From NCBI GenBank assembly GCA_050949565.1, contig JBMNFY010000008.1, positions 341,488 through 405,487 on the forward strand: 64,000 nt of DNA, read 5' to 3'. Below the pieces are notes generated by a model. The model was not told the origin of the DNA and did not search any database. It saw only the letters and a program-made list of their open reading frames with translations. Shown piece by piece: positions 7,092-63,772 of the stretch. The position numbers were made by a program, and so were the translations under genes. Each line of letters begins with the position of its first letter. Position 1 is the first letter of the stretch. This DNA comes from Kiritimatiellia bacterium (GTDB lineage: Bacteria; Verrucomicrobiota; Kiritimatiellia; RFP12; UBA1067).

Positions 7092-7144
7092 GATTTAGGA
7101 ATTAGGAGTTTTTTATCCCAATCGGGATCGCTATCGGTATCGAA
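7078..7144. repeat. Heptamer tandem repeat (TTAGGAr) followed by hexamer repeat (ATCGsk)
   Basis: ttaggagttaggatttaggaattaggagtt overlaps the ade stop codon, then atcgggatcgctatcggtatcg (reverse copy at about 46979-47012). Confidence 0.75.
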
Positions 7145-7177
7145 ACTCGTAACAAAGCCTATAAGAAAGGTTCAAGC

Positions 7178-15952: not shown

Positions 15953-15959
15953 GATTACT

Positions 15960-16211
15960 AACGCGGGCGGAGCCCGCAACCCAAGCTAATTAGTGCGTTA
16001 GTGCATTAGTTTGTCCGGGGGGTGCTACCCTCAAAAAACCTTCGTGCCTCTGTGAGAGAAAAACAGAACCATGAAACACATGAAACTTCATGAAAACTGA
16101 AGCCTTTCCTTTGCGTTCTCTGCGTTCTTTGCGGCCATTTATGTAGCCATGCCTATTCGATTCGCGACAATTCGCATCATTCGCGGTTAAAACTCCGTCG
16201 CCAACCGATTA
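15960..16211. repeat. Cluster of triple short-repeat cassettes ending in the conserved 19-bp boundary motif
   Basis: AACCATGAAACACATGAAACTTCATGAAA, CTTTGCGTTCTCTGCGTTCTTTGCGG, ATTCGCGACAATTCGCATCATTCGCGGTT, then CTCCGTCGCCAACCGATTA. Confidence 0.7.
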
Positions 16212-16232
16212 CGGGCTTTTTCAACAGCGTTC

Positions 16233-16262
16233 TTGACCCCTATCGTCCCAATTCAGTATAGT
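16233..16262 (+). promoter_or_regulatory. Sigma70-type promoter for tRNA-Ser
   Basis: TTGACC-N18-TATAGT ending 16 nt upstream of the tRNA. Confidence 0.65.
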
Positions 16263-16278
16263 GAGGCCACTTTTTCTC

Positions 16279-16368
16279 GGAGAGGTGGCAGAGCCTGGTT
16301 GAATGCACATGACTCGAAATCATGCGTGCCGCAAGGTACCGGGGGTTCGAATCCCTCCCTCTCCGCCA
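16279..16368 (+). tRNA. tRNA-Ser (anticodon CGA)
   Basis: GGAGAGG acceptor, anticodon arm CATGA-CTCGAAA-TCATG, long variable arm, GGTTCGAATCC T-arm, encoded CCA. Confidence 0.97.
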
Positions 16369-16411
16369 TCTAACCAAACTTGCGGGCGAAAGTCTGCAAG
16401 CATGAGAACAC

Positions 16412-30689: not shown

Positions 30690-31062
30690 TTGACATGATT
30701 AACATGATTATTGTGCCGTGCGCGGCGTGGCGGCGAAATCTGGAGTGCGGTGACAAGAGCCGCGCTGTGCGCGGGTCGCGGCACCGCTTTCTCTCCGCGC
30801 CGTGCGCGGGCACACTGTCGAATACACTTAGTCGCCACACCTAGTGCTTTGTTTCATTTGTACAGCGACACTAAAGGGCATGGCTACGGTAATAATTGAT
30901 TCGCATTAGTTTGTCTGGGAGCACGCTGTTCCCAAAAAACCTCCGTGTTCTCTGTGCCTCTGTGAGAGAAAAAAGCCGAGCCATGCTCCCAAAAATCCTT
31001 CGTGCCCTTCGTGCCTTTGTGTGAGAAAAAACAGAGCAGTACCCCCTGTCACTGACCGATTA
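30690..31062. repeat. Composite intergenic repeat cluster (REP-like unit, CCGAGC-linked triple-repeat cassettes, 19-bp boundary motif)
   Basis: GGAGTGCGGTGACAAGAG.. at about 30742; CTCCGTGTT CTCTGTGC CTCTGTG; CTTCGTGCC CTTCGTGC CTTTGTG; CCCTGTCACTGACCGATTA at 31044-31062. Confidence 0.75.
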
Positions 31063-33546: not shown

Positions 33547-34842
33547 GTGATGACGACCTTTTACCTTCAAAACGTGCGGATTCTGGATCACGCGCGCAAC
33601 CGCGATGAAATCGCCGATCTTTACGTGCGCGACGGGATGATCGTCGCCTGCTCCGCTCCCCCCGCAGACGTGCCGCGCATCAATGCCGACGGCCTGCTGG
33701 TCGCGCCGGGCTTCTGGGATGTCCATGTCCATTTCCGCGATCCGGGTGCCCCCGCCGCCGAAACGCGCCGCACCGGTGCGGCCGCAGCTGCGGCCGGCGG
33801 ATTCACGCGGGTCGTGACCATGCCCAATACCATGCCCGCTGGCGACACGCCCGCCTGGGTACGTGAGCAGATTGAGGACGACCTGCCGGTCCGGATTCTG
33901 CCTTCCGCCTGTATTACTCAGGGTCGGCAGGGACGTGAAATCGCCGACCTCGATGCCCTCGCCGCCGCCGGTGCCGCCGCCTTTACCGATGACGGCGCAA
34001 TGGTCGCCGACGATGCGGTCATGCGCGAAGCGATGACGCGCGCCAAGCGGCTCGGCAAGCCGATCATGGATCATGCGGTCGTACCGGCGATTGCCAAAAA
34101 CGGCGTGATCCGTGACAGTACGATTGCGCGTCAATTGGGGCTGCCGCTCTTCCCGCCCGAAGCCGAGGTCGAGGCCGTGCTGCGCGATATCCGGCTCTGC
34201 CGCGAAACCCGTTGCGCCACGCACATCCAGCACGTCTCGTGCGCCGATTCGGTGGCGGCCATCCGCGCCGCGCGTGCTGAGGGCTTGCCGGTCACCGGTG
34301 AAGCCTCGCCCCACCACCTTGCAATCGCCGCCGACGATATCCCTGGCGATGACGGCAACTACCGCATGAATCCGCCGCTCGGTAACCATGAGGACGTACG
34401 CGCTCTCCGCGACGGCGTGCTGGACGGCACGCTCAGCCTCTTCGCCACCGACCACGCGCCGCACACCGCCGCGACCAAAACCCGCGGCTTCCTCAAAGCC
34501 GCGTTCGGTGTCATCGGCCTCGAAACTGCGATTGGCGTCACGTGGGAAATCATGGTTCTCCAAGAGAGCCTCTCCCCACTGACGTGGGTTGCCCGCTGGA
34601 CTACCGGCCCCGCCGCGTTGCTAGGTTGCCCCGCGCCTTCCCTCGCGCCCGGCGTGCTCGCGGATCTCGTGGTGATCGACCCGCGAACGCCATGGCGCGT
34701 GACGCCCGACACCTTCCGCTCGCTCTCGCGTAACACACCGTTCGGCGGCTGGACGCTACACGCCCGACCGGTGCTGACGGTCTGCGAGGGCCGCATCACG
34801 TTCACGGACCCGAAAACCATCACTCTGGAGGAACCCGCATGA
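33547..34842 (+). CDS. pyrC: Dihydroorotase (multifunctional-complex type)
   Basis: DVHVHFRDPG, AAAGGFT..MPNT, HIQHVS, PHHL, MNPPL, ATDHAPH, SRNTPF. Confidence 0.92.
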   Translation: MMTTFYLQNVRILDHARNRDEIADLYVRDGMIVACSAPPADVPRINADGLLVAPGFWDVHVHFRDPGAPAAETRRTGAAAAAAGGFTRVVTMPNTMPAGDTPAWVREQIEDDLPVRILPSACITQGRQGREIADLDALAAAGAAAFTDDGAMVADDAVMREAMTRAKRLGKPIMDHAVVPAIAKNGVIRDSTIARQLGLPLFPPEAEVEAVLRDIRLCRETRCATHIQHVSCADSVAAIRAARAEGLPVTGEASPHHLAIAADDIPGDDGNYRMNPPLGNHEDVRALRDGVLDGTLSLFATDHAPHTAATKTRGFLKAAFGVIGLETAIGVTWEIMVLQESLSPLTWVARWTTGPAALLGCPAPSLAPGVLADLVVIDPRTPWRVTPDTFRSLSRNTPFGGWTLHARPVLTVCEGRITFTDPKTITLEEPA

Positions 34843-35663
34843 CCCCTGACTTTTTCGAAACCGCCGCCGCCGCGCTGCCTGATATCTGCCGCGAACCGCC
34901 GCCGGATTGCGGCATGATCCTCGGCTCCGGTTGGAGCAAAGCACTGGCCGTTGACGCGCCGCTGTTGCGCCTGCCCTACAGTGAGATTCCGGGGCTCGGT
35001 GCCAGCACGGTCGTCGGCCACGCCGGCGAGTTCCTGCTTTTCGACCGCCACGGATTGCGCATCGCGGCCTTTATGGGCCGCCGTCACTGGTATGAGGGCG
35101 CGGGTTGGGGACCGGTCGTGATGCCCGTTGAACTGTTGCGCCGCTTGGGCACCCGCAACCTGCTAATCACCAACGCCGCAGGCAGCATCACGCCCTCGTT
35201 CACCCCCGGCGACCTGATGATCATCCGTGACCACATCAATACGGTCGGCATTTCGCCGCTCATCGGACCGGTCATGCCCGGCTGGGGACCGCGCTTTCCG
35301 GATCAATCGCAAATCTACTCACCCGCGCTCATCGACCTGCTGCGCAAAGCCGCGCACGATGCCGGCACGGCTCTTCGCGAGGGCGTCTATGCCTTCACCT
35401 CTGGTCCCGTCTATGAAACCCCGGCCGAGATCCGCGCTTATGCCGGCATGGGCGCCGATGCCGTCGGTATGTCCACCGTGCCCGAAGCCACGGTCGCGAA
35501 CGCCGCTGGCCTGCGTACCGCCGGCCTGAGTTGCATCACCAACATGGCGGCCGGCATCAGCGGCCCGAACCTGTCGCATGAAGGGGTGATCGAACAGACC
35601 CGCAAGACATTGCCGCTCATGGCGGCGCTGCTCGACGCATTTTTGATGCATCTCGCTCAGTAA
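34839..35663 (+). CDS. Purine-nucleoside phosphorylase (trimeric type)
   Basis: ILGSG, GHAG, GRRHWYEG, TNAAG, GPVYETPAE, VGMSTVPE, ITNMAAG. Confidence 0.93.
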   Translation: MTPDFFETAAAALPDICREPPPDCGMILGSGWSKALAVDAPLLRLPYSEIPGLGASTVVGHAGEFLLFDRHGLRIAAFMGRRHWYEGAGWGPVVMPVELLRRLGTRNLLITNAAGSITPSFTPGDLMIIRDHINTVGISPLIGPVMPGWGPRFPDQSQIYSPALIDLLRKAAHDAGTALREGVYAFTSGPVYETPAEIRAYAGMGADAVGMSTVPEATVANAAGLRTAGLSCITNMAAGISGPNLSHEGVIEQTRKTLPLMAALLDAFLMHLAQ

Positions 35664-36214
35664 TCGGTTAGTGACAGGGATGTGCGAAGATCATGCGTTT
35701 TTGGAGAAAAGGAGAGCCGAGAGTCGGGAGCGCGGGCGTCCTCGCCCGCAACAACGTGTCTTGCGATTTCTGTTTTATCCGCAGATTTGCGCAGATTGCG
35801 CAGATTTTCTCTTTTTTGTTTTTGACCGTAGGAGGGGAGAGACGAGCGTCTGCTCGTCCGCGGGCAAGCAGACGCTTGCCCCTCCCCGCCGAAGCGACCT
35901 CTTCGAAATCATGTCAAAAATGAAACCAGTTCTTAACCATGAAACAAACCCGAGCAATGCCATCTCCAAAAAAAATCTGTGTCCATCTGCGTCCATCTGT
36001 GGTTAAAAAACCGAGCACGGTCTTTTCGTGTATTCCGTGTGTTTCGTGGTTAAACAAACCCGAGCAATGCCCCCAAAAAACCTTGGCGATCTTAGCGTCT
36101 TGGCGGTTCCAAAAACCGAGCAATGCGCCCCCAAAAACCTCTGTGCTCTCTGTGTCCTCTGTGGTTAAACGAATCCGAGCAATGCCAACTCCTAAATCCT
36201 AACTTCTAACTCCT
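35661..36214. repeat. Modular repeat array: 19-bp boundary motif, REP-like hairpins, then five CCGAGCA-linked cassettes
   Basis: Linker CCGAGCA(ATGC) at about 35950, 36011, 36060, 36116 and 36175, each followed by a different tandem triplet. Confidence 0.8.
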
Positions 36215-37393
36215 ATGTTCCCTCATCCTACCCCAGCTTTCGTCGTTGATGCCGCCGCCCTCGAACGCAACCTCGCCATCTTGGGCGAAGTCAAACGCCG
36301 TACCGGCTGCCGCATCCTGCTTGCGCTGAAAGCCTTTTCGATGTTCAGCGTCTTTCCCCGTATGCGGCGCGTGTTGGACGGCTGTTGCGCCAGCTCGGTG
36401 TATGAAGCGCGCCTCGCCCGCGAGACCTTCGGCGGCGAGGTCCACGCTTTCGCCGCCGCTTTCTCTGAAACCGAAATGCGCGAGATCGTGACGCTGGCCG
36501 ACCATGTGACGCTCAACTCCTTCGCGCAGTTCCGCCTGTTCCAGCGTGTCGTAGCCGAAAGCGGACGCGATGTCGTCTGCGGTCTGCGCATCAATCCGGA
36601 ACACTCCGAAGGCGCGGCCGAAATCTATGACCCCTGTGCGCCGCGTTCGCGTTTAGGCGTGCGCCGCGCGGCCTTTGACGGCGAAACGTTGCACGGCGTG
36701 ACCGGGTTGCACTCGCACACCCTGTGCGAACAGAATGCCGCGCCGTTCGTACGCACGTTGGCCGCGATCGAAAAACGCTTCGGCGACCTGTTGCCGCGTC
36801 TCTCCTGGATCAATTTCGGCGGCGGTCACCACATCACGCGGTCTGACTACGATCTTGATCTGCTGTGCGACACACTCAACGCATTCCGTACGCGCCATCC
36901 GAATATCGAAACCATCTACCTCGAACCCGGCGAGGCCTGCGCCCTCAACGCCGGCACGCTCGTGGCGACCGTGCTGGATGTGGTGGACAACGACATGTCC
37001 ATCGCCATTCTCGACGCCTCGTGTGCCTGTCACATGCCGGACGTGCTGGAGATGCCGTACCGTCCCCGTGTCTTCCGCGACGCCGCCTGGAGCGGTCAGG
37101 CCAGCCCCGGCCCGGAAGCCGACATCGGCTGTGACCCCGGTGTCAAGGCCCACACCGTACGGCTTGCGGGCGCCACCTGCCTCGCAGGCGACATCATCGG
37201 CGATTGGTCGTTCGACACGCCGCTTCAGACTGGCGACCGCGTGATCTTCGAAGACATGGCGCACTACACAATGGTCAAGACCAACACCTTCAACGGCATC
37301 CGCCTTCCCTCGATCATGTTACGCGAGCCTGACGGCACCCTGCACACCGTACGCACCTTCGGTTACGAAGACTTCAAAAACCGTCTGTCGTAA
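36215..37393 (+). CDS. nspC: Carboxynorspermidine decarboxylase
   Basis: PTPAFVVD, LALKAFS, GLRINPE..YDPCAPRSRLG, HTLCEQ, NFGGGHHITR, HMPDVLEMPY, YTMVKTNTFNG. Confidence 0.95.
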   Translation: MFPHPTPAFVVDAAALERNLAILGEVKRRTGCRILLALKAFSMFSVFPRMRRVLDGCCASSVYEARLARETFGGEVHAFAAAFSETEMREIVTLADHVTLNSFAQFRLFQRVVAESGRDVVCGLRINPEHSEGAAEIYDPCAPRSRLGVRRAAFDGETLHGVTGLHSHTLCEQNAAPFVRTLAAIEKRFGDLLPRLSWINFGGGHHITRSDYDLDLLCDTLNAFRTRHPNIETIYLEPGEACALNAGTLVATVLDVVDNDMSIAILDASCACHMPDVLEMPYRPRVFRDAAWSGQASPGPEADIGCDPGVKAHTVRLAGATCLAGDIIGDWSFDTPLQTGDRVIFEDMAHYTMVKTNTFNGIRLPSIMLREPDGTLHTVRTFGYEDFKNRLS

Positions 37394-47135: not shown

Positions 47136-47189
47136 TCGTGACGTACACGATGGGGTTTGTTTGACGGAAGCGGAAGGGAAGGACGGGGC

Positions 47190-49511
47190 ATGAAATGTTT
47201 CGCACATACGGCACGGCACCGAGAAGATTGGGAGCCGCTTAAAACGCACCTGCTGAACGTGGCCGTTCGCGCCCGCCAATTCGCCTCTGCTTTCGGTGCA
47301 GGCGTCGAGGGCTATATTGCCGGCCTGCTCCACGATCTGGGGAAGTACGGGATACGGTTTCAAGAACGGTTGCACGGCAAGGGACGGCACATCGACCACT
47401 GGACTGCTGGTGCGTGGGCCGCAATAAAGCAATATGGGAAAACAGGCCGTTGTCTTGCGTTAGTTGCGCAGGGTCATCATTTGGGGTTGCAGCAAGACCA
47501 TAAGAGTTTCCTTGATAAAATTTGTACCCGTACGCCTTCTCCCGGCACAACGCTGTCAGCGGACTCTATGAACGAATTGTTGCAACAGTTCGCAGAGGAC
47601 GGATTGTCGTGGCCTGCCTTGCAGAAGTCGTTTTATAACCGGACGGGCAAAAGCTGCTCCGACATGCTGGACGTTCGGATGCTGTTTTCGGCACTCGTCG
47701 ACGCGGACTACCTCGAGACCGAAAAGTTTATCAATACGGTCGAGGTCAAGCCGCAACGGATGGCCGCGCCACTGCTCCAAGCACCGCAAGCGTTTGATGC
47801 TTTAACCCGACACATTGCGAAACTGAACACGAAGCACGGGAACTTGCGTTCAGATGTCGCGGTTATGCGAGCGACCCTGCTTGAGTCCTGCCTTGCGGCG
47901 GCGAAGACTTCTCAAAAGGCTTTTACGTTGAGTGCTCCCACGGGATCGGGGAAAACGCTTTCGATGCTGGCCTTCGCCTTGCAGCACGCCATCGAAAATC
48001 CAGACATCTCCCGCATTATCGTTGTCCTTCCCTTCCTCAACATCGTCGAGCAAACGGCGCTGGTTTACCGTGAGGTGTTTAAGGGTTTTCCAAACGGTTA
48101 CGTGATCGAACATCACAGTCTTGCAGGAACTCGCTCGACTGAGGGCAGAGACAATGACGAGGATCAAGAAAGTGCCGCATACCGTGAACGTCTGGCCGCT
48201 GAAAACTGGGACGCTCCCGTCATCATCACGACAAGCGTGCAGTTCTTTGAGTCGATCTTCGCGAACCGTCCCTCGGCATGCCGCAAGCTGCACAACGTCG
48301 CACGAAGCATCGTCCTGTTTGACGAGGCCCAGACACTCCCCTCTGAACTGGCCATCCACACGCTGACAGCTCTTTCCCGTCTGGTTGAGCGTTACCAGAC
48401 GACGGTCGTGTTTGCAACAGCTACGCAACCGGCTTTCTCCGCGCTCCATCAAGAAACGCTGAAGTGGTGTGCGCAAGGGTGGTCGCCCAGCTCCATGCTC
48501 ACTCGTGAAACGGAAACGCAGTTGTTCGGTAATGCGCGTCGGGTTCGTTTTGAATGGGGTGCCAAAGATGACCGTCTGTCATGGGAAGCGGTCGCCGATA
48601 GGATGCTGGGTGGGGGACACAAGCAGGCGCTATGCGTGATCAACACCAAGAAACAGGCACATGAACTGACAGCCTGCCTGTGTTCGAAAATGTCGCCTGA
48701 AGAACGAGACTCCGTTTTCCATTTTTCAACGGACATGTGTCCTCAGCATCGACGGGATCGACTCACGGAGATCAAAGCGCGTCTGGATGCGCACCAGCCC
48801 TGTTATTTGGTTGCGACGCAGTGCATCGAGGCGGGGGTGGATATCAGCTTCCCCGTTGTTTTCCGTGCTTGGGCTCCGCTGGAGGCGATTATCCAAACCG
48901 CGGGTCGTTGCAATAGGAACAATGAACTCTTCCCCGAAAAAGGCATTTGCCATGTCTTCACGCCTATCGAAGAAAAATTCCCGATGGGATTTTACGGTAG
49001 TGTAACGGCAGTCACACGCTCATACGTTGAGTCACTTGATGAAGAAGCCAAGGTGTATCTTGATGACCCATCGGTCATCGAGACGTACTACACCAGACTT
49101 TACGATGTTCTAAACCAACCAACTTCGGCTAAAAAATTCAAAGACATCTGCGAAGCGCTGGAGGGGTCTGATTTCATAACTGTCGCTGAGAAGTATCGGT
49201 TGATCGAACAGGACATGGTGAATCTGGTCGTGCCCTACGGTGAAGAAGGGCGTCAACTGATGGAGGCCGTCCATAAGATCGGGCTAAACGCCGACTGGTC
49301 GCGCAAGGCGCAACTTTATTCCGTAGCCGTCCGCCGTCCAAGGCCAGGCGACCCCATTCGAGATATCATGGAGCCCGCGCCGATTTTCAAGCGGAGCGAG
49401 CGGCTCGAATCAGAAGACTGGTTCCTTTGCACGGCGAATGCGAAATATGACGAATTAACAGGACTAGAAGTTCCGCATGGCAATGATTTTTGCGATTTTT
49501 GCGAGGTGTAA
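47190..49511 (+). CDS. cas3: CRISPR-associated HD nuclease/helicase Cas3
   Basis: LLHDLGKY, LVDAD, APTGSGKT, FDEAQ, TATQP, ATQCIEAGVDISF, QTAGRCNR. Confidence 0.96.
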   Translation: MKCFAHTARHREDWEPLKTHLLNVAVRARQFASAFGAGVEGYIAGLLHDLGKYGIRFQERLHGKGRHIDHWTAGAWAAIKQYGKTGRCLALVAQGHHLGLQQDHKSFLDKICTRTPSPGTTLSADSMNELLQQFAEDGLSWPALQKSFYNRTGKSCSDMLDVRMLFSALVDADYLETEKFINTVEVKPQRMAAPLLQAPQAFDALTRHIAKLNTKHGNLRSDVAVMRATLLESCLAAAKTSQKAFTLSAPTGSGKTLSMLAFALQHAIENPDISRIIVVLPFLNIVEQTALVYREVFKGFPNGYVIEHHSLAGTRSTEGRDNDEDQESAAYRERLAAENWDAPVIITTSVQFFESIFANRPSACRKLHNVARSIVLFDEAQTLPSELAIHTLTALSRLVERYQTTVVFATATQPAFSALHQETLKWCAQGWSPSSMLTRETETQLFGNARRVRFEWGAKDDRLSWEAVADRMLGGGHKQALCVINTKKQAHELTACLCSKMSPEERDSVFHFSTDMCPQHRRDRLTEIKARLDAHQPCYLVATQCIEAGVDISFPVVFRAWAPLEAIIQTAGRCNRNNELFPEKGICHVFTPIEEKFPMGFYGSVTAVTRSYVESLDEEAKVYLDDPSVIETYYTRLYDVLNQPTSAKKFKDICEALEGSDFITVAEKYRLIEQDMVNLVVPYGEEGRQLMEAVHKIGLNADWSRKAQLYSVAVRRPRPGDPIRDIMEPAPIFKRSERLESEDWFLCTANAKYDELTGLEVPHGNDFCDFCEV

Positions 49512-49624
49512 AAAAGCGCGACACCGTTTAAAGTGCCGCGCCCCAAATAGCACCTGCACAACAAGCACTGTTTCAATTCACGCCTTCGAAAGGCGAGAGA
49601 GCAATATAGCATAAGTGAATTTTT

Positions 49625-49675
49625 TGACAAAACCAGAAACTTGTCATTGCTTGTTGAGCAGAAATGTGATAACGT
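49625..49675 (+). promoter_or_regulatory. Putative internal cascade promoter with inverted repeat
   Basis: TGACAA-N10-TTGTCA directly followed by TTGCTT-N17-TAACGT. Confidence 0.45.
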
Positions 49676-49685
49676 TGCACCACCA

Positions 49686-50432
49686 ATGGATACTACAACC
49701 TTTACGCTAAAATGTTGGGGGCCGTTCGCCTGCTTCTCACGTCCCGACGGCGGGAAAGTCGAACGTCTCTCCTACCCTGTTCCGCCGCCTTCGGCGGTGC
49801 GGGGGATCTTCAGTGCCATCTACTCTAAACCCATCGAGTTCTGGTGGCAGCCGGTGAGAGTCGAGGTGCTGAAGCCGATTCAGTATATCGCCCTGCGCCG
49901 AAATGAAGTTAAAGATAAGATCTCGGTTGACGCTACTCAGATCCAGAAGTGGATGGAAGGCGAAGAGATCGTTCCGTTGGTGGCGGATGCCGACACGTCC
50001 TACTTCAATAACGACAAAAAAGGACGCACCCAACGCCAGACCATGGCGTTAAAAGATGTGGCCTATAGGCTGCACGCCAAGATCGTGCCCTGGCCGGAGT
50101 TCGCGAATCAAGTCAAGGGACTGGAGGCGCAATTCATCCGCCGGGCCGAAAAGGGCAAGTGCTTCTATCAGCCGGCTTTTGGCTGCCGCGAATTTGCAGC
50201 CTATTTCGAGCCCGTCACCGACGAGAAATTCGCCCAGCCGTCTGAACCGCCGGAAAAAAGCGCTACGCAGAACATAGGGCTGATGGTCTATGACACATTC
50301 GACCTCTCCGTCAAAAACCCGCCCGGCACCGCATCACCTTTCGTCACGCTATTCCATGCCAATCTAGAGAACGGCATAATGGAGATTCCGCCTTTCGAAA
50401 GTGACGCCGTACTCAAGCCCCCAAGGGAGTGA
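49686..50432 (+). CDS. cas5: Type I-C Cas5 (Cas5d)
   Basis: WGPFACFSRP..ERLSYPVPPPSAVRG, RRNEV, RTQR, YQPAFGCREF. Confidence 0.95.
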   Translation: MDTTTFTLKCWGPFACFSRPDGGKVERLSYPVPPPSAVRGIFSAIYSKPIEFWWQPVRVEVLKPIQYIALRRNEVKDKISVDATQIQKWMEGEEIVPLVADADTSYFNNDKKGRTQRQTMALKDVAYRLHAKIVPWPEFANQVKGLEAQFIRRAEKGKCFYQPAFGCREFAAYFEPVTDEKFAQPSEPPEKSATQNIGLMVYDTFDLSVKNPPGTASPFVTLFHANLENGIMEIPPFESDAVLKPPRE

Positions 50433-50434
50433 CC

Positions 50435-52342
50435 ATGCTACACTTGCTCGCCGATTATGCCCGCGACATCGGACTGGCCGCAGAGCCCGGCTTCGTTGCT
50501 AAAGAAATCCGATGGTGTCTGCTCTTTAAGAAAGACGGCACCTTTTCGGAGGTCGTTGACCTCTCTGGAGGCGACAAAAAGTCCAAAGGTTTGTTGTTTC
50601 CTAAATGCCCGGCACTCTCGCACAGCGAACTGATCGGTGGTTCGTCAGGCAGGAGCCAAGTCCTTTATGAAAGCGCTCAAATAATTGCCCTGATGTTCAA
50701 GGAAAATGACACTGATAAGGATAAAGACCGAATTCAAGGCAAACACAACTTCTTCGTCTCCTCTCTGGCGGACTGCGCCCAACACGCCATGCCCGAACTG
50801 GCAAATGTTGCGAAGACGTTGTCAGACAAAGCTTCCTGCACACAAATCGCGGCCGCGCTGAAAGAGAAAAAAGCGAAACCGTCCGACAAGGTAACCATCG
50901 CGGTGGACTTTGCGCGCCCTTTGGATTCATCCGCATGGCACGACTGGTGGCGCAACTTCCGCATAAAACTTGCCGATTCAACCGACAAAAAAAAGCCGAA
51001 GAAGAAAAAAGCTGATGCGTCTCTCATGCTGGATTTCATCACCGGCGAAACTATTACACCGTGCCTCACGCAGGGCAAGATCAGCAATCTCTCCGATGTC
51101 GGCGGCCAATCCTTTGGTGATGTGTTCATCGGCTTTGACAAAGAATCGTTTCGTTCATTCGGTTTTAAGCAGGGAGAAAACGCAGCCGTTTCTGAGGAGA
51201 ATGCGGCGGTCTATCGTGAAGCACTCAACCATTTGCTCAAAAACCACAGTCGGCGGCTTGGGAAGTCCAAAGTGGTCTACTGGTACAAAGGAAAGGTGAA
51301 ACCAGAAGACGATCCAATTGAAATGCTGGCACCTCGCGAAAAAGAAACCAAGGAAGACCTGTCTTTCGACGGGGACGATTTCGATCGACAGCAGGATAAA
51401 GCTGTCGCATTAAGCAATGCCAGAAGGTTGTTGGACTCACTCAAAACCGGTGAGCGACGCGATCTCGGGGAAGCGGCTTTCTACGTCATGGTGTTGTCCG
51501 GAGCATCCGGACGGATCATGATCCGCGACTGGATTGAAGGGCAGTTCGGTCAACTTGCTCAAAACATTGCCGACTGGTTTGAGGATTTTGAAATCGTGGC
51601 TCGATACGGGCAAGGCATGGCACCCTCTCCCAAATTCATGGCCGTCATGGGGGCAACCGTTCGGGAGTTGAAAGAACTGAATGCGCCATTTGTTGCCGCC
51701 ATGTTTCGAGCAGCGCTAGGCGGACGCAACGTCCCGATTCCGCAAAGTGCGTTAGCAGCCGCGTACGCACGCTTCAAGATTGATTTGATCTCGACCGATC
51801 CGAGAACAAATAAACCCAAGGCGTTCAATCATGCCCGGATGGGACTGATTAAAGCGTATCATCTCAGAAAAAAAGGAGGCGTGGAAGTGACCGAAAAACT
51901 CAACGAACGATTAGACTGTGTTCCCTATCAATGCGGGCGACTAATGGCGCTGCTTGCAGAGATTCAGCGGCGGGCCTTGGGGGATGTTGGTGCCGGCGTT
52001 GTCCAGCGGTACTATGCGGCCGCCTCTACCACGCCCGCTTTGGTGCTGGGCCGACTTATCCGGAACAGCAACGCGCACCTAGATAAGATTGGCGGCAATC
52101 TTGCCAGACGGTACGAAGACAAACTGGCGGAAGTCTGGGACGGCATCAGGACGGAGATCCCTAAAACGTTAACACTCGAAGAGCAGACTCTTTTCGCGAT
52201 GGGCTATTATCAACAGATTGCCCAAATCCGAAAAGACGCTGCCGATGCCATTGCGACGAAGAAAGCAAAGTCATCTGCGCAAGATGAAACAGAAACAACT
52301 GACCTGACAGACGACATTCAACTGCAAGGAGAATCACTATGA
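50435..52342 (+). CDS. cas8c: Type I-C Cas8c (Csd1)
   Basis: [50 protein letters not shown]; position in operon. Confidence 0.93.
51887..52342 (+). CDS. cas11: Putative Cas11c small subunit translated from an internal start in cas8c
   Basis: In-frame GTG preceded by AGGAGG (51874-51879) 7 nt upstream, at the start of the helical C-terminal domain. Confidence 0.7.
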
Positions 52343-53304
52343 ACACCCCGATTAAAAACCGCCACGAATTCCTATTCCTTTTCGACTGCGAAAATGGAAA
52401 CCCGAACGGCGATCCCGACATGGGCAACAGCCCGCGTATCGATCCACAGGATATGCACGGACTGATTTCAGACGTCGCCATTAAGCGTCGCATCCGCAAC
52501 TACGTCCAGATCAGGTGCGGGAACGAGATGCCTAACGCAATCTTCATTCAACACTCGAGCAACCTCAACGTACCGATCGCCGTCGCACATGAAAAGACCG
52601 AAGGCGGCCTGGAACTCACCACCGGAAAAGGCGGCGCGGGAAAAGCCAAAGTCGACCTTGCCCGTGACTGGATGTGCGCGAACTTTTATGACGTCCGCAC
52701 GTTCGGTGCGGTCATGAGCACAGGAGCGAATGCCGGACAAGTACGCGGGCCTGTCCAGCTTACATTCGCCCGTTCTGTCGATCCGGTCTTACCAATGGAT
52801 ATCTCAATTACGCGTATGGCCGTTGCTGTGGGGGATCCAAAGAAGTGTAAGTCCAGCGAGGACTACCAAAAACTTGCGGATGACACGCCTGAAGACCAAT
52901 TGAGAACCATGGGACGCAAGGCTTTGATTCCTTATGGCTTGTTTATTGGAAGGGGCTTTGTCAGCGCGAATCTTGCGGCGCAAACTGGGTTTTCCGATGC
53001 CGACCTTGAACTTTTGTGGGAAGCGATCATGAACATGTACGAACAGGATCGCTCAGCCAGCAAGGGGCTGATGTCCGTACGTCGGCTCTACGTGTTCAAA
53101 CATGTCGGAATGGCGACCAATGAGCAGCGTGAACGTGAAGCCATGCTGGGATGCGCTCCTGCTCACAAGCTTTTTGATCTGGTTGAGAAACGGATCCAGC
53201 GTGTCGAGGTGCCCCGCGCTTTTTCAGACTACGAAGCTTCCATCCCGACAAAGGAACAGTTGGAACCTCTGTTGCCCCCGGGTGTCGAAGTCAAGGTCTA
53301 CTAG
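52339..53304 (+). CDS. cas7: Type I-C Cas7 (Csd2)
   Basis: [49 protein letters not shown]. Confidence 0.96.
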
Positions 53305-53347
53305 CGCTGCTCCATGGCATTGCTCTCCCGCTCTCCCGCTTGCGCGG

Positions 53348-53621
53348 TGACCCGCGACTTGCGACCCGCGACTCGCGGTGACACGGCAAAACCGACGCCG
53401 TGCGCCGCCCCTGCCACCGCAGGTCGCAAGTCGCAGGTCGCGAGTCATCCGAAGAAGGAGGTGCCCCGCGACTCGCGGTGCTGCGGCAAGCCCGACGCCG
53501 TGCGCCACCCCTGCCACCGCAGGTCGCGAGTCATCCGAAGAAGGAGGCGACCCGCGACCCGCAGCCCGACGCCACGCGCCGACCCTGCCGCCGCAGGTCG
53601 CAAGTCGCAGGTCGCGAGTCA
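53348..53621. repeat. Three heptamer-built hairpin repeat units upstream of the four-helix-bundle gene
   Basis: Units 53348-53447, 53462-53533 and 53548-53621; left arm TGACCCGCGACTTGCGAC.., right arm ..GTCGCAAGTCGCAGGTCGCGAGTCA; linker TCCGAAGAAGGAGG. Confidence 0.9.
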
Positions 53622-53651
53622 AAACACAACCAGGCCAGAAAGGAACGCATA

Positions 53652-54410
53652 ATGTCAAAGCCCCCCTTCGGACGTTTCGGCGGATACCGCAAACTGCACT
53701 CTTTCGGTTTCGTCTGCCTCGTTTACCACGCCACGACGCGCTTCTGCCGACGGGTCTATCCGTGGAAGGAAGACCCGCTGGGCAAGACAAGCGGCCAGAT
53801 GGTCGGCGCGGCGCGTTCGGCGCGGCAGAATATCGTCGAGGCCTCGTCCCGCGCCAGCACGTCGAAGGAAACCGAAATCAAACTGCTGGACGTGGCAAAA
53901 GCCAGTCTGGACGAACTGCTCGGCGATTACGAGGCGTTCCTGATCGACAACGATCAGTTAGTGTGGTCGGAAAAAGACGAGCGCTGGCAGACCGTCGCCG
54001 CGTTGAAGTTGGATGAGTTCTCGGCGACCGAGGACGTGCTCCACGAATTCAGCCGCCACGTCATCGCGATGCGCCATCGTTTCGCGGACTGGTTGGAGCA
54101 TGAGGATCCATACGTCGCCGCCAACGCGATCATTGTGATAATCAATCGGGCGGCGAGCCTTCTTTTTCGGCAAATGGAACGGGCCATGGCTGATTTCGAG
54201 CGGGAGGGCGGTTTTCGCGAACGCATGACGCGTCTTCGAATTGAACAGCGCGAGGCGTTGAAAGCGGCGGAGCCCCCGCCGCCGTCCTGCCCGGCCTGCG
54301 GCAAGCCGATGACCCGCCGCAAGGCCAAGACCGGGCCGAATGCCGGCAAGCCCTTCTGGGGCTGCACCGGCTACCCGGCCTGTAAGGCGGTTCAGGAGAT
54401 AGAGCAGTGA
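53652..54410 (+). CDS. Four-helix-bundle (23S IVP/Avd-like) protein with suffix domain and topoisomerase-type C4 zinc ribbon
   Basis: GGYRKLHSF..QMVGAARSARQNIVE..LLDVAKASLDELLGDYE..FEREGGFRERMT; CPACGKPM..FWGCTGYPAC; SD GAAAGGA. Confidence 0.85.
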   Translation: MSKPPFGRFGGYRKLHSFGFVCLVYHATTRFCRRVYPWKEDPLGKTSGQMVGAARSARQNIVEASSRASTSKETEIKLLDVAKASLDELLGDYEAFLIDNDQLVWSEKDERWQTVAALKLDEFSATEDVLHEFSRHVIAMRHRFADWLEHEDPYVAANAIIVIINRAASLLFRQMERAMADFEREGGFRERMTRLRIEQREALKAAEPPPPSCPACGKPMTRRKAKTGPNAGKPFWGCTGYPACKAVQEIEQ

Positions 54411-55312
54411 TGACCCGCGACAAACGACCCGCGACCCGCAGTGACGCGGCAAGACCGACGCCACGCGCCGACCCTGCCGCCGAAAGTCGCAAGTCGCAAG
54501 TCGCGAGTCACCAGACAAAAGTGATGACCCGCGACCAACGACCCGCGACCCGCAGTGACGTGGCAAGACCGACGCCACGCGCCGACCCTGCCGCCGCAGG
54601 TCGCGAGTCGCAAGTCGCCAGCCGCCCCTATCCCGAAGACCAGCTTCTGCCGCTTTCAGCCGTAAGCCAGTATGTTCACTGTCCCCGGAGGTGCGCATTG
54701 ATTCACTTGGAGCAGGCATGGTCTGAGAATGTCTTCACCGCCGAGGGGCGCGTGCTCCATGACAAGGTGGACAGCGGCAAGAAAGAGTCGCGCGGCGACC
54801 TGAAGATCCTCCGCAGTCTCCGCCTGCGCTCGTTGCGTCTCGGCATCACCGGTATCGCGGACGTGGTCGAACTGCACCGTTGCGCACCGTCCGAGGGCGG
54901 TGTATCGGTGCCGGGGATCAGCGGCACATGGCTGCCGTTCCCCGTTGAATACAAGCGCGGCGCGGCCAGAAACATCCGCTGCTACGAAGTCCAGCTCTGC
55001 GCACAGGCGCTCTGCCTTGAGGAAATGCTGAACGCTCGGATTCCGGAAGGCGCGCTTTTTCTCGGCGAGAAGCAACACCGGTCAGCAGTTACATTCACGG
55101 ATGCGCTGCGTTCGGAAACCGAGGAGGTCTGCCTCGCCTTGCAGAAGTTGTTTGCCGAAGGCGTCACGCCCCCGGCGGCCTACAGCAAACGCTGCTCGTC
55201 CTGCTCCCTCTTTGAAGCCTGCCTGCCGAAATCCGCAGGCGCCGGCAAGTCCGCCCGCGCATGGCTTGCCCGCGAACTCGACACACTCGACCGCATGGAG
55301 CCGGAAAAATGA
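54407..55312 (+). CDS. cas4: Cas4 with repeat-derived N-terminal extension
   Basis: Core starts YPEDQLLPLSAVSQYVHCPRR; GIADVVE, PVEYKRG, QLCAQALCLEEM, CSSCSLFEAC. Confidence 0.9.
   Translation: MMTRDKRPATRSDAARPTPRADPAAESRKSQVASHQTKVMTRDQRPATRSDVARPTPRADPAAAGRESQVASRPYPEDQLLPLSAVSQYVHCPRRCALIHLEQAWSENVFTAEGRVLHDKVDSGKKESRGDLKILRSLRLRSLRLGITGIADVVELHRCAPSEGGVSVPGISGTWLPFPVEYKRGAARNIRCYEVQLCAQALCLEEMLNARIPEGALFLGEKQHRSAVTFTDALRSETEEVCLALQKLFAEGVTPPAAYSKRCSSCSLFEACLPKSAGAGKSARAWLARELDTLDRMEPEK
54411..54622. repeat. Two further hairpin repeat units (114-bp period) encoding the Cas4 N-terminal extension
   Basis: Units 54411-54510 and 54525 to about 54622; peptide MTRD.RPATRSD.ARPTPRADPAA occurs twice. 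Confidence 0.88.
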
Positions 55313-56334
55313 AGAAGTTGCTCAACACATTGTATGTGACCACGCAAGGCGCTTATCTGCGCCAAGAGGGCGAGACGGTTGTGGTGTCGATCGACCGCGC
55401 GGATGTCCTGAGGTTGCCGATCCACACGCTCTCGGGAATTGTCTGTTTCGGGCAGGTCGCCTGCAGCCCGCCACTGCTTGGACTCTGTGGCGAGCGGGGT
55501 GTGCATGTCAGCTTTCTCACGGAACGGGGAAAATTCTTGGCGCGTGTCACGGGGCCGGTCTCCGGCAACGTGCTACTCAGGCGCGAACAGGTGCGGCGCG
55601 CCGACAAGCCGGAGGCTGCACTGGAGATTGCCCGCAGCTTCGTCTTGGGAAAGCTCGCCAACAGCCGCACCGTGCTGCAACGGGCGCAGCGTGACCACGA
55701 TGTCGGCCCGTCCGTCGCCAAGGCCGTCGATGCGCTGGCCGACGTGATCCGGCGCACACGGCGCGCGGCGGATATCGACACCCTGCGGGGTTTAGAAGGA
55801 GAGGGCGCGGGGAGTTACTTTGAGGTCTTTGACCGCATGGTCGTATCACAAAGCGACGCATTTTCGATGCAGAAGGGACGCAGCCGCCGACCGCCGCTCG
55901 ATCCTCTAAACGCATTGCTCTCATTCTTGTACACGATCTTGGCGCACGATTGCGAAGCCGCGCTGGAAGGGGTCGGGCTTGATCCGCAGATCGGCTTTCT
56001 GCATGCGCTGCGGCCCGGGCGTCCGAGTCTGGCGCTCGATCTGATGGAAGGGTTCCGTTCCATTCTGGCCGACCGCGTCGCGCTTTCGCTGATCAACCTC
56101 AATCAAATCAACGGCAAAGGGTTCACGGTCACGGAGTCAGGCGCGGTCATGATGGACGACGAAACCCGGAAGACCGTTCTGCAGGCGTGGCAGAAAAAGA
56201 AACAGGAGACGATCCAGCATCCGTTCCTGAACGAAAAAGTCGAAATCGGGCTCTTACCGCACGCGCAGGCATTGTTGTTGGCGCGTCATTTGCGCGGCGA
56301 CCTCGATGGTTACCCGCCGTTTCTGTTGAAGTGA
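55309..56334 (+). CDS. cas1: Type I-C Cas1
   Basis: MKKLLNTLYVTTQG, SGNVLLRREQ, RGLEGEGA, RRPPLDPLNALLSFLY, GLDPQIGFLH, LALDLME. Confidence 0.97.
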   Translation: MKKLLNTLYVTTQGAYLRQEGETVVVSIDRADVLRLPIHTLSGIVCFGQVACSPPLLGLCGERGVHVSFLTERGKFLARVTGPVSGNVLLRREQVRRADKPEAALEIARSFVLGKLANSRTVLQRAQRDHDVGPSVAKAVDALADVIRRTRRAADIDTLRGLEGEGAGSYFEVFDRMVVSQSDAFSMQKGRSRRPPLDPLNALLSFLYTILAHDCEAALEGVGLDPQIGFLHALRPGRPSLALDLMEGFRSILADRVALSLINLNQINGKGFTVTESGAVMMDDETRKTVLQAWQKKKQETIQHPFLNEKVEIGLLPHAQALLLARHLRGDLDGYPPFLLK

Positions 56335-56350
56335 GAGGGGGGAGTATTGT

Positions 56351-56641
56351 ATGCTTGTTCTCGTCAGTTACGATGTCAGCACGGTCGATTTGTCGGGGCG
56401 TCGCCGTCTGCGTCATGTGGCAAAAACGTGTGAGAACTACGGGATTCGCGTGCAGAACTCCGTGTTCGAATGCAATGTTGACCAGGCTCAATGGACAGCG
56501 TTGCGGGCAAAGTTGTTGGATATCTTCGATCCCGAGACAGACAGCCTGCGCTTTTATTTCCTGGGCAATGCCTATCAGCGCCGCATTGAGCACCAAGGAG
56601 CCAAGCCCGCAGTGGACGTTGAAGAGCCGCTTATTCTTTAA
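56351..56641 (+). CDS. cas2: Cas2
   Basis: MLVLVSYDVST..RRLRHVAKTCENYGIRVQNSVFEC..DSLRFY. Confidence 0.97.
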   Translation: MLVLVSYDVSTVDLSGRRRLRHVAKTCENYGIRVQNSVFECNVDQAQWTALRAKLLDIFDPETDSLRFYFLGNAYQRRIEHQGAKPAVDVEEPLIL

Positions 56642-56819
56642 CGCGAACCCCAAGCGAGCAACTTTTGCCTAGGGAGGTTCGCGGACTTTGCAACTCGTTG
56701 TTGTGCAACCACTTACGCGAGTGCTTTGTTCTTTGACAACTGAACATCCCTTATTTTCCGCCGGGTACGCGGAATCATTCACCTTTCCCATTGCGGGAGA
56801 AGGTGTTACAGTACCCGCC
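56642..56819 (+). promoter_or_regulatory. CRISPR leader
   Basis: Non-coding 178 bp between cas2 and first repeat; GCGAACC..GGTTCGC inverted motif typical of I-C leaders. Confidence 0.8.
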
Positions 56820-59800
56820 GTCGCGCCCCATGCGGGGCGCGTGAATTGAAACGAAAAAGATACAACTCGACCCCCCGTCGCGCCCCATGCGGGGCGCGTG
56901 AATTGAAACTGCCAGCCGCGCGCGCCGACCGCGTACGCCCCCTCCGGGTCGCGCCCCATGCGGGGCGCGTGAATTGAAACCGTGCGCAGCGTGATGAACG
57001 CGCAGGAGGCGCGGTCGCGCCCCATGCGGGGCGCGTGAATTGAAACTTCTCTGTATTGCGTTCGCCGTCCGCCGTGGTCGGGTCGCGCCCCATGCGGGGC
57101 GCGTGAATTGAAACGGTTCTGGAGCGAACAGCGCTACACGCTTTTGCGTCGCGCCCCACGCGGGGCGCGTGAATTGAAACAACCCCCCCGCGCAAATTTT
57201 TTTTTGTCACCAAAGTCGCGCCCCATGCGGGGCGCGTGAATTGAAACCATCACTCCGATGGGCGAGAAAAGCGGGACGATCTGGTCGCGCCCCATGCGGG
57301 GCGCGTGAATTGAAACCCCAGGCGTGGTAGCGGCTGTGCTGGTGCTGGTGGTCGCGCCCCATGCGGGGCGCGTGAATTGAAACTGACTGTAGTTTTTTAT
57401 CGTCGCGGCGCGTCCTGGTCGCGCCCCATGCGGGGCGCGTGAATTGAAACAAGATCGATGATGGTGCGAGTCCGCTGTCGCACGGTCGCGCCCCATGCGG
57501 GGCGCGTGAATTGAAACCGCCGGTGGGCTTGGTACGCCGGCAGAAAGGGAGGTCGCGCCCCATGCGGGGCGCGTGAATTGAAACCTCGATGCGTCGATGA
57601 ACGCGATTGACCGCCTGGGTCGCGCCCCATGCGGGGCGCGTGAATTGAAACAATTGATGTCTCGCCCATCTCGTGATGATTTCCGGTCGCGCCCCATGCG
57701 GGGCGCGTGAATTGAAACATAGCCTCTCGCGAGGATGACGCGACCGGCACACGGTCGCGCCCCATGCGGGGCGCGTGAATTGAAACGGCAATGGTAGAGG
57801 TAAGCATACAGGTTGATCGGGTCGCGCCCCATGCGGGGCGCGTGAATTGAAACAAACAGCCGACAATCTCAATCTCAATGCTGGCGGTCGCGCCCCATGC
57901 GGGGCGCGTGAATTGAAACGGCGGCACCTACCGCCAGACCGGGGACCGCTCGGTCGCGCCCCATGCGGGGCGCGTGAATTGAAACGCACTAAGATAAACA
58001 AGCCACTCCAACATCCTGGTCGCGCCCCATGCGGGGCGCGTGAATTGAAACCATTTTCTCCTGCTGTCCGGTCTTTCGAGAACGGGTCGCGCCCCATGCG
58101 GGGCGCGTGAATTGAAACTAAGAGCAAGCAAGAGCAGATATGCGGGTGGGAGGTCGCGCCCCATGCGGGGCGCGTGAATTGAAACAAAAACCGAAGTCTG
58201 CGACCACCCTTGGTCATCAGGTCGCGCCCCATGCGGGGCGCGTGAATTGAAACTTGGGCCATCATGGCGGGTCGGTGGAGGGCGTTGGTCGCGCCCCATG
58301 CGGGGCGCGTGAATTGAAACCGCCTGCACATTACACGAATGCTCGTACGCACCCGGTCGCGCCCCATGCGGGGCGCGTGAATTGAAACTGCGAGTCCGCA
58401 GGATTCTCGAGTGGCTTGTTTGTCGCGCCCCATGCGGGGCGCGTGAATTGAAACATGCTCATCCTTGCTAATAAAGGCGCATTGTTGAGTCGCGCCCCAT
58501 GCGGGGCGCGTGAATTGAAACATGTGGACGTCGATTCGTGTCCCGTCTCCACAAGTCGCGCCCCATGCGGGGCGCGTGAATTGAAACGATGTTCAACCTT
58601 GCGATGACCCCTGTGGGCGTGTCGCGCCCCATGCGGGGCGCGTGAATTGAAACATCCCGCATCCGCACTCGCGGGCGGGAAATTAAAGTCGCGCCCCATG
58701 CGGGGCGCGTGAATTGAAACTCCCACAGCCGTGGGTTTTTGAAGTTCGCGTGGAGTCGCGCCCCATGCGGGGCGCGTGAATTGAAACTGCGGCAATGAAA
58801 CAGAGGTCAGAAAGTAGCAATGTCGCGCCCCATGCGGGGCGCGTGAATTGAAACACAGGCTGGATGTAGCACCAGTAGTCATCCACAAGTCGCGCCCCAT
58901 GCGGGGCGCGTGAATTGAAACATTACCAGTATGCTCCTATCCTCGGCATTGCCCGGTCGCGCCCCATGCGGGGCGCGTGAATTGAAACACGTTTCTACTA
59001 ACATTCATCTTGTTGGGTGGGGTCGCGCCCCATGCGGGGCGCGTGAATTGAAACTTCTTAGATCATTGTTTGCCGTCGTGTGAAGGTGTCGCGCCCCATG
59101 CGGGGCGCGTGAATTGAAACATCGTTATTCAGTATGTCCATCATTTCGTTACCTCGTCGCGCCCCATGCGGGGCGCGTGAATTGAAACAACCGTTTGTTG
59201 TAACGAATGTCAAGCGACGATGTCGCGCCCCATGCGGGGCGCGTGAATTGAAACTTCAGAGGGCGGGCCGGGTGTTGGTGGTAGCGTACGTCGCGCCCCA
59301 TGCGGGGCGCGTGAATTGAAACCCTGATTATCAATCGCACCAACTAGATTTTGCCGTCGCGCCCCATGCGGGGCGCGTGAATTGAAACATATTGCACCTG
59401 GCCATCGACAATTTCTACCAGTCGCGCCCCATGCGGGGCGCGTGAATTGAAACGCACTGGATAACGCGCGTTAATCCGGTGTGGTTCGTCGCGCCCCATG
59501 CGGGGCGCGTGAATTGAAACCCTGACGGTCGTGATGTTGTGTTTTACAAGACAAGTCGCGCCCCATGCGGGGCGCGTGAATTGAAACAACTCGCTAATCC
59601 TGTTGTCAGCGATAAGGTCTGGTCGCGCCCCATGCGGGGCGCGTGAATTGAAACCCACAGATTGGCGCGCTCACCGCCGAGGTTGATGTCGCGCCCCATG
59701 CGGGGCGCGTGAATTGAAACTATCCTGTCCGCTAACTTAAGCAGGTCTGCGTGTGTCGCGCCCCATGCGGGGCGCGTGAATTGAAACCACACAGTTCACC

Positions 59801-63619: not shown

Positions 63620-63772
63620 ATTTAGGATTTAGGATTTGGGATTTGGGATTTTTAACCATGAAACACATGAAACTTCATGAAAAACCGCGCCATGCCTTTC
63701 CGTGTTTCAGTGTATTCCGTGGTTCCCAAAACCCGAGCACTGCCCCCCAAAAAATCTGCGTCTCTGCGTTTA
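63620..63772. repeat. Heptamer run plus CCGAGC-linked triple-repeat cassettes
   Basis: tttaggatttaggatttggggatttgggattt; AACCATGAAACACATGAAACTTCATGAAA; TTTCCGTGTTTCAGTGTATTCCGTGGTT; AAAACCCGAGCACTGCCCCCCAAAAA. Confidence 0.75.

Follow-up and report, generated by a model that had tools for sequence, protein, structure and literature searches.

The described systems that come closest to the locus reported here are the REP/BIME clusters and the REPIN-RAYT systems (Bertels and Rainey, 2011; PMC3116915). These comprise short intergenic repeats dispersed in hundreds of copies and tied to a nuclease/transposase gene that is itself bracketed by repeats. They also form gene-less doublets and mosaic clusters in which linker motifs are conserved, and they are amplified in tandem and polymorphic between strains. 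All of these traits recur in the repeats described below, including the mosaic clusters joined by a conserved linker, yet the building blocks differ. The REP unit is an imperfect palindrome of 20–40 bp forming a hairpin, whereas the repeat modules found here, which we call arms, are direct repeats made of an AACC anchor and three phased words, with no palindromic hairpins and no significant fold of the array. The modules of this array also all point in one orientation and belong to several word families, and the associated gene encodes a PD-(D/E)XK protein of about 125 amino acids rather than an HUH tyrosine transposase. This protein belongs to the GxxExxY family (PF13366), which has been listed as being of unknown function and as having undergone multiple transfers across prokaryotes and viruses (PMC3424549). 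In the literature searched, by title and abstract, no published description of these repeats together with GxxExxY, PDDEXK_3, PF13366 or TIGR04256 was found, and the literature searched likewise yielded nothing on genes for the IVS-protein/four-helix-bundle family accompanied by heptanucleotide repeats. What the present locus adds is the head-to-tail joining of different arm types, a clade-restricted linker, the scarcity of same-type neighbours and indels of whole periods that break in the linker.

The locus lies in a stretch of 64,000 nucleotides (the window) from the 4.66-Mb genome of a Kiritimatiellia bacterium. It is part of a 551-bp spacer between a gene of the phosphorylase superfamily (PNP_UDP_1 in Pfam; 34839–35663, plus strand) and a gene for a PLP-dependent decarboxylase (36215–37393, plus strand; Pfam PF00278), which a preliminary description of this DNA had called nspC and which is assigned here at the level of the Pfam family. 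The array itself (35950–36214) is a non-coding mosaic, arranged head to tail, of orphan ends that belong to two or more classes of small, apparently mobile gene cassettes: five linkers, four of them exact copies of CCGAGCAATGC, four different triple-repeat arms and one heptamer tract. Linkers and arms are read on the minus strand. From the upstream side, linker 1 (CCGAGCAATGC on the plus strand; 35950–35960) is followed by arm 1 (35975–36004), which has three words of the type CACAGAT/CGCAGAT and an AACC anchor, then by the degenerate linker 2 (CCGAGCACGGTC; 36011–36022) and arm 2 with three CACGAAA/CACGGAA words (36024–36051). Linker 3 (36060–36070) and linker 4 (36116–36126), both exact, enclose arm 3 (36082–36108; three words CGCCAAG/CGCTAAG), an arm type that recurs throughout the genome. 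Arm 4 (36139–36166) contains CACAGAG three times and leads to linker 5 (36175–36185), again exact, directly after which a plus-strand tract of about four AACTCCT/AAATCCT heptamers (36187–36214) abuts the ATG of the decarboxylase gene at 36215.

Read on the minus strand, each unit runs from an outer T-rich run through the AACC anchor, the three phased 7-nt words and a T-run plus G-run to a 10-nt joint, CAYKGCTCGG. All four arms conform to the pattern of an AACC or ACC anchor with three phased 7-nt words at a period of 8–10, and they represent four different word families. Since all four end in GGTT, they begin with AACCRC on the reverse strand. Tandem Repeats Finder independently reported a 57-bp period at 36046–36186, inner periods of 9–10 bp and the heptamers at 4.1 copies. 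Within the arms the words are kept while the 1–3-nt spacers between them differ, and because of this the words would seem to be under selection, most simply as protein-binding sites, in preference to having arisen by recent slippage. The layout given in the preliminary description, with five linker-containing units, the first four ending in GGTT, and heptamers abutting the start codon, is reproduced, and the same grammar is present at all three further places where it had been reported (about 16030–16190, 30920–31040 and 63650–63770). Some details need correction: the C/A run ascribed to every unit is missing from unit 2, in the supposed fifth unit the linker leads into repeats of another class, the heptamers, and the truncated arm start and the inverted partner of arm 1, both treated next, have to be added.

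The part of the spacer upstream of the array contains further repeat modules. A plus-strand arm with GCAGAT words (35773–35803; period 9 at 35780–35807) is the inverted partner of arm 1, to which it is 79% complementary over 24 nt at a distance of 188 nt. It is followed by a palindromic hairpin module with 30-nt arms (35831–35890), which belongs to a separate repeat family with many copies in this genome and its relatives, and by the truncated start of a CATGAAA-type arm (AACCATGAAAC; 35935–35945, plus strand), which closes the array as the remnant of an inverted arm. An inverted CATGAAA-type arm commonly ends other arrays as well. Arm 2 pairs solely with this truncated arm start (35933–35949), and arms 3 and 4 are without any inverted partner. 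When the features of a MITE are considered, arm 1 has its inverted partner 188 nt away and the block is absent from relatives, and no clear target-site duplication was found. In this strain, the last codons and the stop of the phosphorylase-family gene are supplied by inserted repeat DNA, as the comparison of gene ends with relatives indicates: the protein ends in ...LAQ-stop (35650–35700) because the inserted DNA brings a stop codon, and in close relatives (L002/L003) the frame continues into an octamer tract.

Where do the arms come from? Six PF13366 (GxxExxY, PD-(D/E)XK) genes are present in this genome, and the flanks of the six bear triple-repeat arms. At most of these genes the arms are inverted; one gene, for instance, is preceded by AACCATGAAACACATGAAACTTCATGAAA and followed by the exact reverse complement of that sequence. 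GxxExxY genes also occur in 28 of 40 other genomes of the same family. In a test set of 30 fetched loci plus those of this genome, of which 31 were testable, inverted arms passed an automated test (an inverted match of at least 17/22 within 100 nt of the ORF ends) at 16, and inspection by eye reveals one arm or more at several further GxxExxY loci. In the encoded proteins, the motifs G.G.LE..Y, D and E.K, the last two making up the D...E.K nuclease motif, are retained in at least 85% of 30 aligned sequences, and one of these proteins matches TIGR04256 at 5.6e-40; a sequence search found no solved structure for a GxxExxY protein. Two of the four arms of the array have close matches at such genes: arm 2 agrees at 27 of 28 positions with the arm on the right of a GxxExxY gene from a same-family genome (L033), and arm 4 at 25 of 28 with the arm on the left of GxxExxY genes from two same-genus genomes (L032 and L035). 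For arms 1 and 3, the best gene-flanking matches among the 36 gene loci compared were 22/30 and 17/27, respectively, so that none of these loci provides a cognate gene.

Compared with gene-bearing GxxExxY (PF13366/TIGR04256) cassettes, the array has the same anchor, the same three-word design and the same arm types. Unlike them, it is gene-less, its solo arms being of four types, placed head to tail and joined by a linker; no GxxExxY gene lies between inverted arms here, and the three ORFs that cross the array region have no NCBIfam family, one of them (35671–36006) being also without a Pfam family. From these sequence comparisons, the triple-repeat segments appear to be terminal inverted-repeat arms of small GxxExxY nuclease genes and not spacers. 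The preliminary description had compared them with repeat-spacer acquisitions, which does not hold, as they are drawn from about ten arm types recurring at about 1000 sites. Its view that they have different specificities fares better, in that they do belong to different word families of one kind of site, and GxxExxY, one of the gene families that it had proposed for testing, is the family that these arms bracket both at the six genes of this genome and in relatives.

The arms are very abundant, and most of them are intergenic. Genome-wide, Tandem Repeats Finder gave 4646 rows, with periods 7, 8 and 9 accounting for 902, 690 and 1075 of them, and tandem arrays of period 6–10 occupy 7.0% of intergenic versus 0.76% of genic DNA. 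A search with ten word types found 996 arm-like sites, 921 of which (92%) are outside predicted genes; here as elsewhere, "intergenic" refers to crude ORF and codon-usage gene calls made in this analysis. Arms also form convergent doublets, which are often heterologous: in 59 of 120, tandem copies included, one arm is of the CATGAAA type and its partner of the CACGAAA, CACGGAA or CGCCAAG type.

The linker has a much narrower distribution. The exact 11-mer CCGAGCAATGC occurs 40 times on both strands of the genome, against 3.3 expected from base composition, and by our reading of the listing 38 of these copies touch a triple-repeat arm; when up to two mismatches are allowed, the window shows no enrichment of the motif (30 occurrences versus 33 expected). 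On the strand on which the arm reads forward, the grammar is arm, T-run, G-run, CA(T/C)(T/G)GCTCGG, (G)TTTnTTT and next arm, and the strict linker pattern has 121 sites in this genome versus 5 in shuffled sequence. Relative to the flanking genes, in the frame of the module and with tandem copies included, 61 of the 121 linkers are co-directional, 19 anti-directional, 16 convergent and 10 divergent; a further 14 lie inside predicted genes and 1 at a contig edge. The linker variant is weakly associated with the type of the upstream arm (p = 0.02) and shows no association with that of the downstream arm (p = 0.12).

Any match to the linker was found in 10 of 81 genomes of the order, and the linker is abundant only in this genome (G000; 66 + 59 matches, overlapping, with 0 in the control) and in a genome of the sister genus (G045; 24 + 9). 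Within the genus, G004 has 36 + 19 and G002 13 + 5 matches, and G001, G003 and G006 have 0–1. At 27 gene-bearing cassette loci, no linker core lies within 120 nt of the ORF; what comes nearest at such a locus is a linker-like leader at the C15:17358 gene. On account of this few-genome range and of its absence from all 27 gene-bearing loci, the linker is a young, clade-restricted feature of the gene-less modules that lies outside the cassette design, and the "constant linker" of the preliminary description is a joint restricted to a clade and no universal repeat.

The heptamer tract at 36187–36214 points to a second class of cassette. In this genome, inverted tracts of heptamers or octamers, AACTCCT among them, enclose four-helix-bundle (PF05635) genes, and AACTCCT tracts flank the one at C17:395464. 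The tract next to the decarboxylase gene is, by repeat type, an arm of this class, whose cassettes carry a gene of PF05635, the 23S rRNA intervening-sequence protein family; the arm type is the same, and the tract differs from these cassettes in being single, with neither a gene nor an inverted partner.

How regular is the joining of modules? Of the clusters with at least two linkers, 21 of 22 are in a single orientation. Among 62 classifiable non-redundant linker junctions, no two neighbouring arms were of the same type, against 7.15 expected, and zero was reached in 0.035% of shuffles. Exceptions exist: two CGCAGAG-type arms are joined at a junction on C12 that the classifier missed, G004 has a run of four consecutive same-type arms with identical canonical linkers, and same-type tandem arms stand without a linker beside a gene in G000. 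Adjacent linkers are identical in 5 of 21 cases versus 2.76 expected (p = 0.12); as this is not significant, a simple target-duplication model is left without support. Units can also be amplified once formed: in G000, two-arm units of 118–120 bp occur in tandem about 8- to 17-fold by our own count. Of two such clusters, at C17:453470–455390 and C17:778486–781420, one consists of 17 tandem 120-bp units, each with two or three arm modules and a linker, and the second, which is similar, has 22 linkers. Of 20 stretches fetched from G045 (L062–L078), at least 17 contain a fixed composite of three forward arms and an inverted arm, so that arm order is fixed there and the composite spreads as a whole. 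This composite measures about 190 bp and comprises two truncated arms, one full arm and the inverted CATGAAA arm; on all occasions it lies between tracts of the octamer GGTTTCAG and tracts of the hexamer ATCGGG.

Comparison between strains reveals how fast these spacers change. In two relatives that are 96–97% identical (G002 and G004), the spacer before the decarboxylase gene measures 171–172 bp instead of 551 bp. Besides an octamer tract peculiar to these relatives and a single degenerate linker, it contains arm 4, the last linker and the heptamers, whose tract is longer, with about six copies against about four here by our own count; arms 1–3 and the hairpin block are missing from it, and arm 4 is the only arm common to all. 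In relatives of 80–87% identity, unrelated heptamers precede the same decarboxylase ATG. G002 and G004 have an abundant octamer tract of their own, GGCTGTGA/GGCTGTAA, which stands at the decarboxylase spacer and again in another operon (L002, L003 and L094); at these sites G000 has different repeats. The mosaic at 15953–16411 is about 250 bp longer here, these 250 bp of arms being absent from G004; it lies directly upstream of a tRNA gene (16279–16365). Two spacers in another operon measure 1336 bp and 960 bp in this strain, and their counterparts in G004 136 bp and 31 bp, respectively. At 7092–7177, a GGAGTTA-type heptamer tract has exactly one more repeat copy in G002 (L011) than in this strain. 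For two other arrays, the search for orthologues gave none (L082) and one flank only (L083). The preliminary description had staked its reading on cassette polymorphism between strains, and the outcome is divided: cassette number does vary, with four units here and one in the two 96–97% relatives, and order is fixed in the sister-genus genome G045. Paralogous mosaics within G000 differ by exactly one arm-plus-linker period, the longer copy having two linkers where its paralog has one, and their alignments overlap by 8–12 nt inside the linker, which places the breakpoints in the linker. These one-period differences fit an insertion at a linker as well as a deletion between two linkers, and gain and loss would look alike.

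We consider it probable that the array is a BIME-like mosaic of orphan cassette ends, in which foreign units arrived through break repair or insertion at the linker and its T/G-runs and were then rearranged by unequal recombination. As neighbouring arms differ, the arrays have not grown by local duplication alone, and foreign units must have been brought in. The three words of each arm would be sites bound in trans by cognate nucleases; units would be added at the linker either by break-induced templated copying or by insertion from other arrays, with the short linker and the T/G-runs supplying the homology, and might afterwards be multiplied or lost through unequal recombination. Stepwise acquisition and binding by the arms are what we infer from the arrangement. 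A bolder version of this scheme, which is unlikely in our judgement, treats arm plus linker as a mobile unit of minimal size that has only one end: once bound to the words, a GxxExxY nuclease would cut in the linker, at a fixed distance from them, and repair would copy in an arm of different specificity from another site. The array might then be a chronological record of invasions by nuclease families, and the scarcity of same-type neighbours could result from nuclease-driven deletion between same-type arms. If this were true, a PD-(D/E)XK protein of about 125 amino acids and its triple-word sites would constitute a new, very small self-propagating DNA system. Several features of the arrays could also be read as the work of a dedicated site-specific joining reaction, integron-like or by one-ended transposition with linker duplication, for which the linker would be the core; arm plus linker would be mobile and the arrays would record captures. 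The five linkers enclosing four arms, the inserted periods bounded by a linker on either side, against a single linker in the paralog, with their short overlaps, the uniform orientation of 21/22 clusters and the heterologous neighbours at 62/62 classified junctions all accord with it. Deletion between direct linker repeats yields the same pattern, however, and the identity of adjacent linkers does not exceed expectation significantly. Moreover, Pfam names no integrase, recombinase or transposase in the 44 window ORFs scanned (11 of them without any family), and no machinery dedicated to acquiring cassettes was identified. No circular or excised forms were seen in contigs from public sequencing runs, where the joints that do occur have short sides: one, present in a single contig, skips 36066–36128, its shorter side being 21 letters long, and another leads back from 36166 to 36128, and both may derive from other loci. 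A joining reaction of this kind is conceivable, though we doubt it.

Could the array instead be kept for the host, as an insulator of protein-binding or curved DNA, as a leader that adjusts how strongly the decarboxylase gene is expressed, or as decoy sites that soak up the nucleases of the cassettes? Its position directly 5′ of the decarboxylase ATG invites the idea, contigs of two DNA metagenome runs from different studies match 35860–36600 without differences, and a contig from an RNA library spans 36025–36600 with 2 differences. Contigs cannot show transcript ends or strand, and one from an RNA library is compatible with co-transcription with the decarboxylase gene, short of proof. Against a host function, most of the array is absent from the 96–97% relatives, the 80–87% relatives have other repeats in its place, and the same modules stand at roughly 900 intergenic sites beside unrelated genes. 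A gene-specific operator array was rejected as well. A scan found 0 sigma-70-like promoter sites and 2 terminator-like sites, the latter at chance level; the RNA fold of the array is not better than that of shuffled sequences on either strand (z-scores –1.06 and +0.93), and Rfam, run on the whole window, reported only the tRNA at 16279–16365 and no family over the array. A host role is quite unlikely on this evidence; the array seems to have no specific role for the neighbouring genes and, lying upstream of the decarboxylase gene, may simply be read as a 5′ leader. It is highly improbable that the array is plain satellite DNA from replication slippage, or a decayed coding repeat, unrelated to any cassette. 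Slippage would suit the variable copy number of heptamers (the extra copy at 7092–7177 in G002, and about six against four here) and the homogeneous 118–120-bp tandem amplifications elsewhere, but it cannot make neighbouring arms of different sequence, and the arms match the ends of nuclease genes. As for coding origin, the spacings between exact linkers are 110, 56 and 59 bp, none a multiple of three, and most of the sequence of the three ORFs, which have no NCBIfam family, is missing in close relatives.

Taken as a BIME-like mosaic of cassette ends, the locus gives the orphan family PF13366/GxxExxY a testable role by tying it to a very abundant repeat system, one that takes up about 7% of the intergenic sequence here and remodels spacers, and even gene ends, between strains that are 96–97% identical. 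The repeats also affect assembly, for the public-run contigs break off at or near them and no piece listed covers the whole spacer. With different arm types lined up head to tail and a short joint specific to the clade, the arrays offer defined substrates for the study of repeat spread.

Two array-like systems that the locus resembles in outline were considered and rejected. Like integron cassette arrays, it lines up heterologous units head to tail in a single orientation and joins them by a short conserved sequence; its units contain no ORFs and no attC-type hairpins, and no integrase was found among the 44 window ORFs scanned. It also resembles a CRISPR array in that constant and variable segments alternate with a period of about 55–60 bp. 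The preliminary description had already argued against a CRISPR, rightly: the constant part is only 10–11 nt long and non-palindromic, the "spacers" are internally periodic and belong to about ten genome-wide types, and no cas genes are adjacent. The repeat of the true CRISPR in the window is unrelated to the linker. That CRISPR belongs to a complete type I-C CRISPR-Cas locus at 47157–61858 (cas3, cas5, cas8c, cas7, cas4, cas1 and cas2) with long arrays of a 33-nt repeat. Within this locus, heptamer tracts (GACCCGC and CGCAAGT) and a 114-bp duplication occur at 53322–53620 and 54406–54618, between and inside the ORFs at 53400–54410 and 54407–55312, the former of which has a topoisomerase zinc-ribbon match only.
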